Source of the DNA: Eledone cirrhosa
Taxonomy: Eukaryota
Length of the DNA: 64,000 nt
Direction: 5' to 3'
Assembly (NCBI GenBank): GCA_964016885.1
Contig: OZ024742.1
Coordinates: forward strand, 178,994,001 to 179,058,000
A model generated the notes under the pieces. It made no database searches. It worked only from the letters and a program-made list of their open reading frames with translations, and was not told where the DNA came from. The position numbers were made by a program, and so were the translations under genes. This document shows positions 17,273 to 60,076 of the stretch, one piece after another; the first letter of the stretch is position 1, and the number at the start of each line of letters is the position of its first letter.

Positions 17273-17440
17273 TATAGGAAAATGTTCAAGACCCCGACGG
17301 CAGAGCTCAAGCCGTGTCGAAACGGCTTGAGTTCTGCCGTCGGGGTCTTGAACATTTTCCTATTACCCACTCTACTACCCAAATTATTGAGTACTCTGGT
17401 GCGTTATGGTTCACCTGGTTCCTTACCACATTTCCTTCGT
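17273..17440 (+). mobile_element. Fold-back non-coding element (family D) in (TA)n
   Basis: A ~45-bp-arm palindrome centred at ~17318 continues into a 3' segment shared with 18570-18776 and 24792-24981; all end at ccacatttcctt(c/t)gt+(TA)n. Confidence 0.8.
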
Positions 17441-17634
17441 TATATATATATATATATATATATATATATATATATATATATATAATGGTAGAACACTGGA
17501 AGGTAATATTGTGTTACTACTTCTCTCTCTCTCTCTCTCTCTCTCTCTCTCTCTCTCTATATATATATATATATATATATATATATATATATATATATAT
17601 ATATATATATATATATATATATATATAGTTTATA

Positions 17635-17930
17635 GTTAGTAACACAATATTACCTATATATATATATATATATATATATAGTTAGTAACACAATATTACC
17701 TATATATATATATATATATATATATATATATATATATATATATATATATAGTTAGTAACACAATATTACCTATATATATATATATATATATAGTTTATAG
17801 TTAGTAACACAATATTACCTATATATATATATATATATATATATAGTTAGTAACACAATATTACCTATATATATATATATATATATATATATATAGTTAG
17901 TAACACAATATTACCTATATATATATATAT
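17635..17930. repeat. Minisatellite GTTAGTAACACAATATTACC+(TA)n, 6 units
   Basis: The unit is the reverse complement of 17502-17520 (ggtaatattgtgttacta). Confidence 0.9.
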
Positions 17931-17931
17931 A

Positions 17932-18215
17932 TAAAGAAGAAATTAAAAGATGGTTAAACAAGTTCCATATATTTTATTATGCGCATTTCGAAAACAATAT
18001 CATCCTGGGACAAAAATTGTGTTCTCATCAGATAAAATAAAGTAACATGATATGAGGCCTAAAAACACTTATGAACAAGAAAGTCTTCAGTCTACATATG
18101 TAGACTAGACACTTTCTTGTGAGAACACAATTTTTGTCCCAGGATGATATTGTTTTCGAAATGCGCATAATAAAATATATGGAACTTTTTTAACCATCTT
18201 TTAATTTCTTCTTTA
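17932..18215. mobile_element. Head-to-head inverted HHR element (family C)
   Basis: 17932-18027 is the reverse complement of 18119-18215. Minus-strand HHR at 17971-18038: AUUUUAU CUGAUGA GAACACAAU..AUUGUUUUC GAAA UGCGCA UA AUAAAAU. Confidence 0.85.
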
Positions 18216-18371
18216 TATATACTCCAGTTCTACCAACTGTTGATTGCTACTTATCTGATATATGCATAGGTTTATTGTTCTACAATATTACTCACCTCAT
18301 ATATATATATATATATATATATATATATATATATAATATAAGATCAAAAGATGGTTAAAAGAGCTCCAAGT

Positions 18372-18440
18372 ATTTTATTATGCGCATTTCAAAAACAAAT
18401 ATCATCATGGGATGATATCTGCGTTCTCATCAGATAAAAT
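18372..18440 (-). ncRNA. Type I hammerhead ribozyme motif (family C)
   Basis: AUUUUAU CUGAUGA GAACGCAGAUAUCAUC ccau GAUGAUAUUUGUUUUU GAAA UGCGCA UA AUAAAAU. Confidence 0.8.
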
Positions 18441-18569
18441 AGGTAGGCATGATATGAAGCTTAAAAAACACTTGTGAGCAGTGAAGTTTTAAATCAACAC
18501 ACACACACACACATATATATATATATATATATATATATATATATATATATATATATATATATATATATA

Positions 18570-18776
18570 TAGGAACGAGTAGGATCCCGACGGCTGAGCT
18601 CAAGCGGTTACGACGGGTAATTCTGGATTGGATTATTCGTCCAGAATTAGCCGCTGAAACGGCTTGAGCTCAGCCCTCGGGGTCCTACTCGTTCCTATTA
18701 ACCACTCTACTACCCTAAGTATTGAGTACTTTGGTGCGTTATGGTCCACCTGGTTCCTTACCACATTTCCTTTGTT
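18570..18776 (+). mobile_element. Fold-back element family D, copy 2
   Basis: Inverted arms 18570-18608 and 18658-18697 enclose the hairpin taattctgga/tccagaatta followed by GAAA; shared 3' end. Confidence 0.8.
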
Positions 18777-18984
18777 ATATATATATATATATATATATAT
18801 ATATATATATATGGTTACACACATCACACACACATTTATATGTAAACAAATCACGTAGTTTAGAAGACGGTAGCAATGTGAATTTGAAAATTAAATTGAA
18901 TTACCAGCTTTCACCATACTTTTCGGCTACAGAAAATAGCCTAATAACCGGGCATATAAGGCCTTAGAACGGAAACAATGGGTA

Positions 18985-19060
18985 TCTGCCCGCGTTGGAA
19001 TCGAACCCACACCTCTTATTTTCGCGATAAGTGTACTTGCCTATTACACTGTAGTGATTC
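18985..19060 (-). other. tRNA-like sequence (pseudo-tRNA or SINE head)
   Basis: Minus strand agtgtaatagg (A box), cttat-cgcgaaa-ataag (anticodon-like arm), gggttcgattcc (B box); no convincing acceptor stem. Confidence 0.5.
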
Positions 19061-20385
19061 CCAAAGGTTGGCTGAGGAGATGGACCTGCACGATTTTCCA
19101 TTTTTGATGTTGTTGGTGTTTTGTCTTGTGCGCCCCATGATTTGTATATATATACATATATATATATATAGGAAGAGGAGTCAGGACCCACTTTTTCAGG
19201 CTCTATTTCTCTTCTTCTTCTTCTTCTTCTTCTTCTTCTTCTTCTTCTTCTTCTTCTTCTTCTTCTTAAATAAAGTGATATATATATATATATATATATA
19301 TATATATATATATATATATATATATATATATATATATACATATATATATATATATATACATATATATATATACATATATATATATATATATACACACACA
19401 CATATATATATATATATATATATATATATATATATACATATATATATATACATATATATATATATATATATATATATATATATATATATATATATATATA
19501 TTTATATATATATATATAAATATATATATACATATATATATATATATATATATATATATATATATATATATATATATATATATATATATATATATATATA
19601 TATATATTTATATATATATATATATATATATATATATTTTTATATATATATTTATATATATATATATATATATATATATATATATATATATATATATATA
19701 TATCACTTTATTTACGATGCTAATAGGCAAAATATACACACATGTATCTACACACGCACCCATATGCATGCATGGTCCCGTAACACCCGAGGGAGTCGTA
19801 AGAGCGCTGTATTGACATACGGCGTTTCTAGGGCATCTTTTTTAAAAAAACCTGGCAGAGCCCAATCCTCTCCAGGCTTGAATACAGTAGATTTCTTCCA
19901 GAGAAGGATAGAAAGTGAGAGTACAGAAGTAAGAAAGAGATATAGAGAAAGAATCGGCCCCAGTACTAGACTGATACTTTTTTATAGACCTCGAATCGAT
20001 GAATAGCAAAGTTGATCTAGGTAGGATTTAAACAAAGAGGGCAGAGGGTCGAAACGAATACTTGAGTTCTATCTGACTTTCTAATGACTCAATTTTCTGT
20101 CTACGCACACACACACACACACATAAATACACCATGCATACACATATCCAATGGAATTGAATGGATCTCCGACAGTTTCGCCAGTCAATATTTGTTCAAG
20201 CTGTTCGATCAACCAAACACCGGACTAGTGAAATTATCATGTAAGTGGTTGAATATTCCATAGAGAAGAGCACCTTTAATGTTACTTTCAGCTATTCCGT
20301 TGATCAGATCAAGTAGAACACTCGTCGTCGTAACCGACGTAGTGCCATATATATATATATATATATATATATATATATATATATA

Positions 20386-57789: not shown

Positions 57790-57960
57790 TGGTAGAGGGT
57801 CGGACGCCATGCTTTGACGCATAGAGTTACGGCCCTTGCAATTCTGAGTTCAAATCCCGCCGAGGTTAACTTTGCCTTTCATCCTTACAGGTTTGACAAA
57901 ATAAAATTCCAGTAATATACTGGGTGATTGCTGGCCTTGTACCAATAGTAGAAACAATTA
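57790..57960 (+). mobile_element. Meta-SINE
   Basis: ggtagagggtcggacgccatgc...gagttcaaatcccgccgagg...gtagaaacaatt. Confidence 0.9.
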
Positions 57961-58037
57961 TATATATATATATATATATATATATATATATATATACGAT
58001 ATTAATAAATGGAAACTATATTTATAAAACCATATTC

Positions 58038-58100
58038 ATTTCATTATACATATTTCAGGGATACCAAATTAAACCACGGTATGCCTTCATCAGACAAAAT
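58038..58100 (-). ncRNA. Type I hammerhead ribozyme motif (family C variant)
   Basis: AUUUUGU CUGAUGA AGGcAUACC..GGUAUcCCU GAAA UAUGUA UA AUGAAAU; a truncated relative lies at 37630-37692. Confidence 0.75.
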
Positions 58101-58254
58101 ACAATATATAACAGTTTTACAAATAGGCTTTGACGTACCCTATTAAAATGCAACCATTATTTTGGAAGCCATCCGGATAGCTACATAGCAGTATATATAT
58201 ATATATATATATATAAATACATATATAATATACTGTTACATATATATAATATAT

Positions 58255-58375
58255 AATTGTTTCTACTTTAGGCACAAGGCCAGCAATTATCACAGTACAT
58301 TACTGGTACTTTATTTTATCGACCCCGTAAGGATGAAAGGCAAAGTTAACCTCGGCGGGATTTGAACTCAGATCG
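58255..58375 (-). mobile_element. 5'-truncated Meta-SINE
   Basis: Reverse complement of the SINE 3' two-thirds. Confidence 0.9.
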
Positions 58376-59644
58376 TATATTATATATAATATATAATATT
58401 TATAGCATACATGTGTATATATATATATATATATATATATATATATATATATATATAAACACACACACATACACACCTATACACAAACAAACACACACAC
58501 ACACACGCAAACACACACACATATATATATATATATATATATATATTCATTTTATTAAAGCTAAATAGTGAATTTTGAACAATAAGGCTAAAGTGAATAT
58601 TATATGGTGCGTGCGTTGGCAATATATTGGCAACATGATATAACATTATATATGCCCCCAGATATAACCCTATACCCCGACCCCACAGGCCTATATATAT
58701 ATAATATATATATATATATATATATATATATATATATATATATATATATATATATATATATATATATACATGGTGAAATATCTAAGAATATTTTATCTCA
58801 AATTTTTGCTACATTCATTTCATGCACTTTCGACGAATTTAGCAAAATATTTCATATTTGCTTACACTGAGAAAAACATGGATGATGTTTCTGGATGTGT
58901 ACACACACACACAGTCATACACACACATTCAAACACAAACACACGCACACACATACACACACATATATATATATATATATATAATCATCATCATCATTGT
59001 CAGCGCTTTTACGTTAAGTTATTGATGGTGGCACGGGTTGCTTGATACTTCTGGGGTAAAGCTTTACAGGCAGAGACTTTTCCTGAAAGAAAACCTTTTG
59101 AGGATGAGGATTTGGCTATATATATACATATATATATTCATGGAATTCTGGGACTTGACTCTTTCTTCCTCACTTTCCGTTGCATTACCATCTTTGTTTG
59201 TTTACAGTCTCGCTCGTTCCCCTTATTTACGTGTCCCAACGACTTTCTTTAGCCGTTGCTCGCACCAACCGGAGGTATATGGTCTTTACAGCGATGAAAT
59301 ACCAATGAAGGTTGGAAGATCACTGATGAAGGACTAACTTTATTCATATATATATATATGAGCGTGTGTCTATGTATGCGCGTATGTACCTATTTTGTTG
59401 TGTGGTTGCTTGGTTGGGTGTGTACAGAGAGAGATACACGTATGTCTCAGTGATTTTATGACGGTTTGTTTCTGTGTCTTTATCGTGCTAGATGGGTGTG
59501 TATATATATATATATATATATATATATATTAATAAGAGGAATTCCAACTTTGTCTGATTTACTCGTTTTATTTACAATCCTTTAAAATATATAATGGTAT
59601 TATAATGAAATAGTATGATAGAATATTAAATTCTAAGTGTTAAT

Positions 59645-59683
59645 TGAACAAGTACTTTCATGCTTTCGCAATCTTCAGGTTCA
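59645..59683 (-). ncRNA. Minimal 39-nt type I hammerhead ribozyme motif
   Basis: UGAAC CUGAAGA uUGC gaaa GCAu GAAA GUAC UU GUUCA. Confidence 0.7.
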
Positions 59684-59726
59684 TAATATGTGGTGACAGT
59701 CGAGTTTGCAATTTTCAACTGTTGAC

Positions 59727-59860
59727 AGATTCCTGATGATTTCTAATGAATGAAACAGTTCTAGTCCTGTAGAATCTCATCTATATTAAAACTGTTATAC
59801 TCTGCTATGTATTGAGTACCTTACTTACTGTGGTTACCTCCGATTCAACCCGGAATAACG
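59727..59860 (+). ncRNA. HHR element family B-HHR (HHR 59727-59777)
   Basis: AGAUUC CUGAUGA uUUC uaau GAAu GAAA CAG uucuaguc CUG UA GAAUCU; same 3' end as the copy at 44216. Confidence 0.85.
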
Positions 59861-59933
59861 TATATATATATATATATATACTATATATATATATATATAC
59901 TATATATATATATATGTTATATACTATATATAT

Positions 59934-60076
59934 ATCATCAGGAAGCTTCCTGATGATTTCTCACGAATGAAACAGTTCTAGTCCTGTAGAAGCTCTTCTA
60001 TATTAAAACATTTATACTCTGCTATGTATTGAGTACCTTACTTACTGTGGTTACCTCCGATTTAAGCCGGAATAAC
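59934..60076 (+). ncRNA. HHR element family B-HHR with short 5' fold-back (HHR 59944-59994)
   Basis: Palindrome atcatcaggaagcttcctgatgat; AGCUUC CUGAUGA..GAAA CAG..CUG UA GAAGCU. Confidence 0.85.

Follow-up and report, generated by a model that had tools for sequence, protein, structure and literature searches.

The window, that is, the whole stretch of 64,000 nucleotides analysed here, contains a series of short insertions from four repeat families (A to D), most of which consist of two arms joined head to head. The term edge is used below for the position at which the arms of a family preferentially end.

17274..17441, plus strand: head-to-head pair of family A; short arm 17274-17316 (minus), long arm and tail up to 17441
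17934..18298, plus strand: pair of family B; the short arm, 17934 to about 18097 (minus), contains an intact hammerhead of type I with C3 at 18031
18337..18496, minus strand: solo short arm of family B, non-inverted; hammerhead C3 at 18433
18571..18775, plus strand: pair of family A centred on 18633; each arm extends as far as the family edge (0/+1), with a 9-nt spacer between the two
20510..21800, no strand assigned: head-to-head multimers of family C; tandem monomer of 526-542 nt with a type I hammerhead of the long-stem-II kind
24794..24979, minus strand: pair of family A; the left arm is the long one; joint at +16/+6 with a short templated duplication
43586..43824, no strand assigned: pair of family B; inverted arm with hammerhead C3 at 43694
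44216..44418, minus strand: pair of family D centred on 44351; each arm extends to the A located 6 nt ahead of CUGAUGA
59725..59860, plus strand: solo copy of family D with hammerhead and tail; it starts at the family edge and has no inverted arm
59934..60076, plus strand: pair of family D, its inverted arm 12 nt long and its centre, 59945/59946, where stem I begins

The preliminary description of this DNA had named seven head-to-head inverted structures, and these do exist: six were recovered by self-BLAST with E-values from 1e-24 to 0, and the 12-nt arm of the seventh (59934-59957) was recognised by eye. The pair at 43586..43824, whose inverted arm stops about 65 nt upstream of the core and whose tail, as judged by eye, is joined at about 43760, is additional to the seven. 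Likewise, the outer ends of the seven structures are flanked by (TA)n, the left run at 17273 comprising a few repeats only. The claim that the inversion point sits on a hammerhead holds for three of them (21189, 44351 and 59945), but not for the other four. The centres at 44351 and 59945 are indeed located at stem I, both at its 5' edge, and each arm of the former pair carries a G at a position where long copies have a C. The junction placed on CUGAUGA/GAAA at 21189 does lie within a hammerhead (the joint spans 21167-21192 and is preceded by a jump from +126 to +20; an extra fragment lies at 20379-20449), but the GAAA in question is part of the long stem II of family C and not of the core. The apex that had been put inside CUGAUGA at 18119 is located by alignment at about 18094, the edge of family B (-69/-70), 69-70 nt upstream of CUGAUGA, while 18119/18120 is where an internal deletion of the right, long arm ends; the neighbouring solo arm of family B ends about 66 nt upstream of its hammerhead core. 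The remaining structures, at 17318, 18610 and 24930, all belong to family A, and the hammerheads ascribed to them were not found, neither CUGANGA nor a descriptor match being present in four long copies of this family. The centre given as 18610 is in fact at 18633, and its "stem-II-like hairpin" is the fold-back itself. Two of the three family A copies in the window (17318 and 24930) join 6-21 nt downstream of the edge, that of 17274..17441 at +15/+21 on a native 5-bp mini-hairpin and without a hammerhead core.

Judged by the reading frames linked to them, families A, B and D are the ends of Hydra-type Penelope-like elements that encode a reverse transcriptase (RT) plus, at the C terminus, a GIY-YIG endonuclease (EN). 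A Penelope-like origin had been proposed before and is supported by RT and GIY-YIG ORFs tied to all three families. In family D the ORF follows immediately after the tail of L055 and L070, and L211, L214, L216, L217 and L218 have the same EN end upstream; among these latter copies the distances vary, and some contain other inserts. The corresponding RT/EN linkage was identified in L219 and L220 for family A and in L222, L223 and L225 for family B. The Pfam match of these ORFs to GIY-YIG is below the cut-off (E 0.004-0.04), and a Pfam search of the ORFs gave no match to RVT_1; the RT assignment is based on a YRDD motif and on 133 homologues, a few of them with PF00078 or PF01541. Compared with the published description, RWR and DKT occur in the D ORF and CxCx5C, CxxC and CxH in the EN ends of D, A and B, and by this motif match the three families would be assigned to the Hydra clade. 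An assignment to the Neptune clade was dropped for Hydra on the clade description. The families had been called unrelated, which is true of their DNA but not of the endonucleases of A, B and D, which are related (30-37% identity). The pseudo-LTR of family D is present both before and after the ORF, and the element is made up, in sequence, of a TATA-like box (-30), the edge (+1), the hammerhead (+1 to +50), two preferred arm starts (~+60/+67 and +134), ATG (+181), RT, GIY-YIG, 3' UTR and then the pseudo-LTR once more; for families A and B no 5' pseudo-LTR continuing into the ORF was found. Family A has about 20,000 tail matches. Targeting of (TA)n, also proposed previously, is supported by tails that run into (TA)n in nearly all copies shown, and an inverted arm adjoins the copy in 42 of 72 cases in D, 21 of 31 in A (one spurious) and 25 of 50 in B.

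Family C consists of tandem monomers with a descriptor match in all three monomers tested, and by this feature it would be classed with the non-LTR retrozymes, which are defined by tandem monomers with a hammerhead in each. No ORF linked to the repeat was found. As far as the available part of the retrozyme study goes (10.64898/2026.07.22.740005), family C and an array of 310-nt tandem monomers, each with a type I hammerhead, resemble these elements, whereas the head-to-head pairs of family C in (TA)n and their two preferred 3' starts do not.

Hammerheads of type I, with CUGANGA, GAAA, UH and stems I-III, were identified with our own descriptor in families D, B and C and in the 310-nt array, as against 0-2 matches in each of 20 block-shuffled windows; their presence in the pseudo-LTR, as had been stated, is thus confirmed for D and B, in addition to the tandem family C. 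No hammerhead family occurred among the 150 of 358 Rfam matches listed for the whole window, nor was a hammerhead returned by Rfam for short stretches of D, A and B. The folding of the D ribozyme is weak (-5.7 kcal/mol, z 0.81). In family A, CUGANGA is absent from both strands up to 600 nt upstream of the tail in all four long copies (L088, L096, L101 and L106), and the remnants are limited to GAAAC, a stem-III-like hairpin and GUC.

In copies chosen by their 3' tail, the arm ends accumulate in a single 13-nt window per family, with 51 of 93 ends in D, 20 of 47 in A and 22 of 66 in B, and among the inverted arms that reach the 10-nt edge bin, 20 of 28 (D), 8 of 10 (A) and 13 of 17 (B) end within it. 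Per 1,000 nt exposed, family D has 75 ends at the edge versus 6.4 in the hammerhead body, family B 54 versus 2.7, and family A 110 versus 11.5 elsewhere, the density on either side of the edge being 3-11 in D, A and B. The edge windows were picked after inspection of the first copies, so that the p-values of this end-density test are post hoc. The copies were sampled from the first 70 Mb of contig C1 by an exact tail motif and are therefore young and tail-bearing; the insertions L092 and L131 were counted from both strands, a 138-nt query set biased toward edge-containing copies was kept out of all counts, and 20 random 10-kb stretches contained too few copies. Genome-wide counts of exact patterns gave 3,465 joints at the edge of family A and, in family B, whose edge precedes the hammerhead by 69 nt, 1,866 joints at that edge versus 12 just before GAAA. 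Run-off at the cleavage site of family D was rejected by the same kind of count, with 28 joints there versus 1,074 at the edge. The expectation that junctions are non-uniformly distributed along the elements was thus confirmed genome-wide for A, B and D, but not for family C, in which the joints are nearly uniform and lack a sharp edge. Short-read contigs of run X1 display an approximately tenfold step in depth and opposite-strand joints near the D edge.

The fixed arm-end window coincides with the 5' edge of the hammerhead in family D only, and family A, which is of the Hydra type and lacks a hammerhead, behaves alike; this argues against the hammerhead as the cause. Hammerhead and joint appear to fall together only if the ribozyme borders directly on the predicted start site, as in D, stem I lending microhomology at most. 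Stem I of D provides a 6-nt microhomology able to seed a snap-back or a join, as exemplified by L059 and two CATC spacers.

The edge itself is predicted to be a Pol II start site. A TATA-like box at -30 and a CCAAT-like motif at -84 are present in nine of nine long copies of D, and long copies of A have a TATA-like box at -29 in three of four (at -31/-27 in the fourth) and CCAAT at -87/-89 in three of four. Six copies of family B lack a good TATA box; weak AT motifs at -24/-26 occur in five of them. The copy L070, which continues into the ORF, starts at most about 6 nt from the D edge, a position blurred by TA microhomology. An untemplated 5' G is described as a mark of cap copying in L1 and SVA (PMC3287187, PMC11702581; available parts), and extra bases were tallied by hand at 50 listed junctions (100 arms) per family. 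In D the base before +1 is G in 24 arms, T in 2 and A in 1 (22 G once the duplicate L285/L286 is merged), as opposed to T 24, G 15 and C 3 in arms one base short (Fisher p 1.4e-5), and the flanks of G-bearing junctions differ except in L285/L286. The extra G of D is confounded by a match of the cDNA end to 6 nt of stem I, after which comes a C, and that of B by a 5-nt match followed by CATG, with about 3 of 12 G arms being clean. It is cleanest in family A, with 14 G (10 without an obvious template) versus at most two A; five more G occur 4-5 nt upstream, at a second A. The edge (YAG in D and A) was also considered as a 3' splice site, a reading that was rejected: the AG is kept on the arms, and there is no continuation into an upstream exon.

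The two arms of a pair are not equivalent. In almost every pair, one arm begins at the distal (tail) site and its partner at the proximal one, with variants common to both; 15 of 16 D pairs examined are long-plus-short, and in family A the short arm starts at +61, beside (TA)n, in 16 of 21. Among 24 D pairs, mismatches per 40 nt amount to 0.58 between the arms of one insertion versus 1.6 between insertions (0 of 5,000 permutations).

We consider it likely that a pair arises once a (TA)n target has been cut and each of its strands primes on one and the same RNA, the cDNAs running off at the predicted capped 5' end of this RNA. Both strands would prime cDNA on the same RNA, the two arm starts would correspond to the two internal RT initiation sites known in vitro for a Penelope-like element, and the RT would copy the cap as an extra C. 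Since the 5' UTR contains these two sites as well, cDNAs primed within it would run off at 60-200 nt and may be likened to the strong-stop cDNA of LTR elements. End joining, accompanied by trimming, microhomology or short templated inserts, would then connect the 3' ends of the two cDNAs. In the accessible part of the study on the Poseidon protein of Anolis, the enzyme cuts and extends both strands of AT-rich DNA from two internal sites, and hammerhead mutants leave the product size unchanged in vitro (PMC11167929). With slightly better than even confidence, we extend this reading to the class as a whole, in which the inverted pseudo-LTR would be a twin run-off product and thousands of genomic junctions would record the start site of each family to the exact base, with or without a hammerhead.

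The preliminary description had instead proposed that the inversion point is set by the folded hammerhead, at which the RT would stall or turn back. The hot spot of D coincides with the 5' terminus of stem I, ends are mildly enriched over the hammerhead of family C (22 of 61, 3.7 per 1,000 nt versus 1.7-2.9 elsewhere, one-sided p 0.04), and the region +35 to +40, close to the cleavage site, holds the ends of 5 of 72 sense arms in D, a number that is not significant and includes two arms of one junction. However, the RT crosses the whole hammerhead in D and B, the B joints lie 69 nt upstream of it at the ratio given above, and family A has the same type of edge without the core; moreover, the D ends are located at the far side of a weakly folding structure, away from RT entry, and insertion size in vitro is unaffected by hammerhead mutants (PMC11167929), which renders stalling very unlikely. 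Self-priming on an antisense transcript, the joint being the 3' end of the antisense RNA, is the published proposal for head-to-head palindromes in Penelope-like elements, made for those of rotifers, as far as the available text extends (PMC3846280), and it predicts the shared arm variants; yet it does not account for the extra G in A, for two fixed arm starts beside (TA)n or for the 29-30 nt by which the edge trails a sense TATA box in two families, and the template in vitro is the sense RNA (PMC11167929), so that we give it equally little credence.

A single priming event would suffice if one cDNA reached the 5' end of the RNA, snapped back and copied itself into the second arm, with stem I (D), a CATAT repeat (B) or native palindromes (A) serving for the turn. 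Variants common to both arms would be expected here as well, L059 is an exact product of stem-I snap-back or of microhomology, the CATC and CATG additions match the self-template, and about 23 of the 50 junctions listed for B form perfect palindromes built on an overlap of 4 nt. Nevertheless, 6 of 50 listed junctions in D (one of them a duplicate) and 3 of 50 in A are palindromes, perfect down to the final base, with spacers of 1-4 nt and the extra base on both arms, and self-priming cannot yield these from a hairpin that has no loop; the short arm starts at fixed sites beside (TA)n, as a priming site would; and both strands are extended in vitro (PMC11167929). Snap-back is therefore regarded as improbable, although less so than stalling or antisense priming. 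Fold-back chimeras are a known long-read artefact, and run X1 may come from the same individual as the assembly; however, the arms differ in length in a fixed way and have diverged from each other, the flanks differ, and opposite-strand joints also occur in the short-read contigs, so that an assembly or library artefact is hardly conceivable.

The insertions can be compared with several known systems, each cited from the parts of the source available. Families A, B and D resemble the Hydra clade (PMC8557442) in their single ORF with RT followed by GIY-YIG, the RWR and DKT motifs, the CxCx5C linker without CCHH, the CxxC and CxH near the end, the pseudo-LTR hammerhead, the (TA)n target, and an inverted 5'-truncated copy with the tail on one end. 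They differ in that the hammerhead core, called universal in Hydra, is missing in family A, that the tails measure about 65-85 nt versus 30-40 nt, that most sampled copies are the 5' UTR/pseudo-LTR alone as a pair of 150-400 nt, and that the point of "truncation" is fixed and not random. With Poseidon of Anolis (PMC11167929) they would share two RT start sites that bound the tail, extension of both AT-rich strands and a dispensable hammerhead cleavage, whereas the ORF of Poseidon begins inside the hammerhead and its two start sites are used in vitro without strand preference, in contrast to the asymmetric pairs described here. The accessible text on Poseidon does not deal with the end points of inverted copies or with cap copying. 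Penelope of Adineta vaga (PMC3846280) similarly has head-to-head inverted pseudo-LTRs with TATA and Inr-like motifs, but antisense self-priming was invoked, on few copies and without a junction map in the part available. Twin priming of LINE-1 (PMC11702581, PMC3287187) likewise involves the other strand of the target priming, as the second, on the same RNA, an extra G at full-length 5' ends and microhomology end joining; L1 arms, however, barely overlap and start at poly(A), while both arms here copy the same 5'-terminal 60-180 nt, resulting in an inverted duplication.

The origin of the tandem and inverted structures of Penelope-like elements has been named an open task (PMC8557442, available part), and in the open-access literature, as far as its accessible text goes, we found no published explanation of the inverted ends besides antisense self-priming (PMC3846280). 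The thousands of young insertions constitute a base-level junction map that points away from the latter and to a testable mechanism, and this map fits the two-site, two-strand priming described in vitro (PMC11167929). The joints would, moreover, predict transcription start sites without RNA data. The genome also holds at least 6,400 short near-perfect inverted repeats of families A, B and D, which would form dsRNA if transcribed.

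Self-comparison of the window, with simple repeats masked, was used to find the head-to-head fold-backs and to sort them into families; the assembly that holds the window comprises 3.0 Gb of a (TA)n-rich animal genome. The fold-backs fall into four families.

Fold-back insertions in the window, by self-comparison
17274, 18571 and 24794: family A fold-backs
17934: family B fold-back
20510-21800: family C fold-back
44216 and 59934: family D fold-backs

All seven structures put forward in the preliminary description are real, and the pairs fold into 10-540 base pairs. Two of the seven inversion centres had been misplaced: that at 18610 belongs at 18633 and that at 18119 at about 18094, position 18119 being the end of a deletion and not the apex of the family B fold-back. 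The inversion point had been placed on the hammerhead, yet of the seven joints only three touch one, and three structures lack a hammerhead. A domain scan of 10 among 25 long reading frames returned RT, zf-RVT and PIF1 domains only.

Copies were sampled in genomic order by the tail motif at the 3' end alone, blind to the joint, giving 72 copies for D (those heading a list of 100 places), 31 for A, 50 for B and 39 loci for C in addition to the window. Genuine long copies served as the alignment reference for every arm. An inverted arm lies next to 42/72 D, 21/31 A and 25/50 B copies. In these families the arm ends cluster at a single site each, sharp on its upstream side and here termed the edge (+1); with ends more than 150 nt upstream left out of the counts, the share of ends at most 6 nt from it is 51/93 (D), 20/47 (A) and 22/66 (B). 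Per 1,000 nt exposed, this corresponds to 75 (D), 110 (A) and 54 (B) ends at the edge, compared to 6.4 (D) and 2.7 (B) in the hammerhead body. Whole-genome pattern counts gave 1,074 junctions at the edge versus 28 at the cleavage site in D, 1,866 versus 12 before GAAA in B, and 3,465 at the edge in A. Family C is nearly flat, the hammerhead taking 3.7 ends per 1,000 nt compared with 1.7-2.9 elsewhere (22/61 ends over the hammerhead, p 0.04, after removal of two loci that look like duplicates and of five ends located at the monomer boundary). Thus, the hot spots at the edge refute a genome-wide uniform distribution of inversion centres for A, B and D, yet they do not follow the ribozyme: the edge lies 6 nt before CUGAUGA in D and 69 nt before it in B, and A is devoid of a core. 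The pattern is real, while its cause, seen earlier in the hammerhead as determinant of the inversion point, was misassigned.

With a type I descriptor, families D, B and C as well as a 310-nt tandem array gave complete hammerheads. The four long A copies examined (L096, L101, L106 and L088) gave none and retain GAAAC, a hairpin and GUC only. In these copies family A, despite about 20,000 tail matches, has just the 3' half where D has a whole hammerhead; this may be a degenerated ribozyme, although the clade is said to carry one without exception.

In nine of nine long D copies, a TATA-like box starts at -30 and is preceded by a CCAAT-like box starting at -84; in A, the corresponding boxes are positioned at -29 and -87/-89 (three of four long copies each), and B has weak AT motifs only, at -24/-26. 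The D and A edges resemble the initiator consensus, and the genomic locus L070 begins near the edge, with an ATG 181 nt further on. The edge is a predicted RNA start site. In arms reaching the edge, the genomic base is often replaced by G. Tallied by hand on 50 listed junctions per family, this base is G in 24 arms versus 3 others in D, in 14 versus at most 2 others in A (with 5 more G at a second A), and in 12 versus 9 others in B. Untemplated G is an accepted sign of cap copying for L1 and SVA (PMC3287187, PMC11702581), and the extra G of the arms might likewise stem from a copied cap. Telling against a copied cap, 6 nt of stem I in D are matched by the end of the cDNA and a C follows them, so the extra base may be templated; the same applies to B, where a 5-nt self-match continues with CATG. 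The extra G is largely clean in A only (10 arms).

Counted from the edge, the short arms have fixed starts, at +60 to +73 in D, +61 in A and +175/+180 in B, and the long arms start at the tail end. This long-plus-short composition occurs in 15 of the 16 D pairs inspected for it, and variants are common to both arms of a pair. In vitro work on a Penelope-like protein showed cleavage and extension of both strands in AT-rich DNA, with two internal start sites and no effect of hammerhead mutations (PMC11167929). Antisense self-priming is the published account of head-to-head palindromes (PMC3846280). Snap-back of a single cDNA accounts for some joints and fits that of locus L059, but leaves unexplained those palindromes that run end to end and bear an additional base on each arm. 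The pairs are likely to form by twin run-off, with the products joined head to head. Two priming events would occur at the two internal start sites and would yield short run-off cDNAs, since these sites are also present at 60-260 nt from the predicted cap; joining of the 3' ends of both cDNAs would then give the pairs seen here. The ends would be spread a few bases downstream by trimming, microhomology and templated inserts, and native palindromes would catch some joints (17318). Element anatomy, the edge, the arm asymmetry and the variants common to both arms are observed, whereas the start site, the copying of a cap, the dual priming and the route of joining are inferred.

Exact tail motifs number 9,006 for D, 19,989 for A, 2,750 for B and 4,437 for C. 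In two D copies the sequence is continuous from hammerhead to tail and on into an ORF, five D copies are preceded by the same GIY-YIG end, and in A and B related endonuclease ends are located about 1.0-1.6 kb upstream. Pfam support for these proteins is weak; their motifs match those described for the Hydra clade (PMC8557442). Family C consists of tandem repeats of 526-542 nt, to which no ORF was linked. Several further endonuclease families of Hydra type, 30-47% identical to family B, were observed at loci L011, L034, L043, L050, L073 and L099, and the same (TA)n runs are often hit by different families. At L012-L016, D units running from edge to tail are repeated in tandem and separated by (TA)n; L002 is a three-arm D insertion, in which sequence read through past the tail meets a second copy close to the edge. 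Hydra elements are known from earlier work, along with their tails, hammerheads, (TA)n targets and inverted truncated copies (PMC8557442, PMC4209133, PMC2377424). A search of the open-access literature yielded no paper placing the joint at the capped RNA end, though supplementary files may list these families. Although the elements themselves are ordinary, the trace they carry of their insertion mechanism is unusually clear and can be tested.

The window holds several other repeats. Nine near-identical 310-nt tandem units between (TA)n runs (34660-37515) constitute a typical non-LTR retrozyme array; every unit contains a minimal type I hammerhead whose stem III is palindromic and whose core resembles that of family D. 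Two short hammerhead-bearing elements between (TA)n (2722-2850 and 57997-58190, - strand) are solitary, without fold-back, and have B-like stems I and III and a different stem II. Other short repeats form diverged inverted pairs at 5092-5432 and 57176-57722; a TA run separates the two arms, and (TA)n flanks them on the outer sides. No hammerhead core was noted in these pairs, which may represent additional elements of tail-to-tail or MITE-like type. A repeat family at 24319-24485, 25313-25506, 43410-43588 and 59162-59345, in which GAAA precedes CUGAUGA with (TA)n behind, gave no match to the type I descriptor. A highly abundant SINE-like repeat, about 190 nt long (8101-8332, 10792-11340, 24553-24690, 57330-58377, 61491-64000), has 41 matches in 200 kb of randomly drawn genomic sequence; neighbours are often inverted, and it lacks a hammerhead. 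Fragments of LINE-type RT and a probably Helitron-related piece of a PIF1 helicase reside at 31732-33597, 47333-49330, 52036-54294 and 41529-42350.
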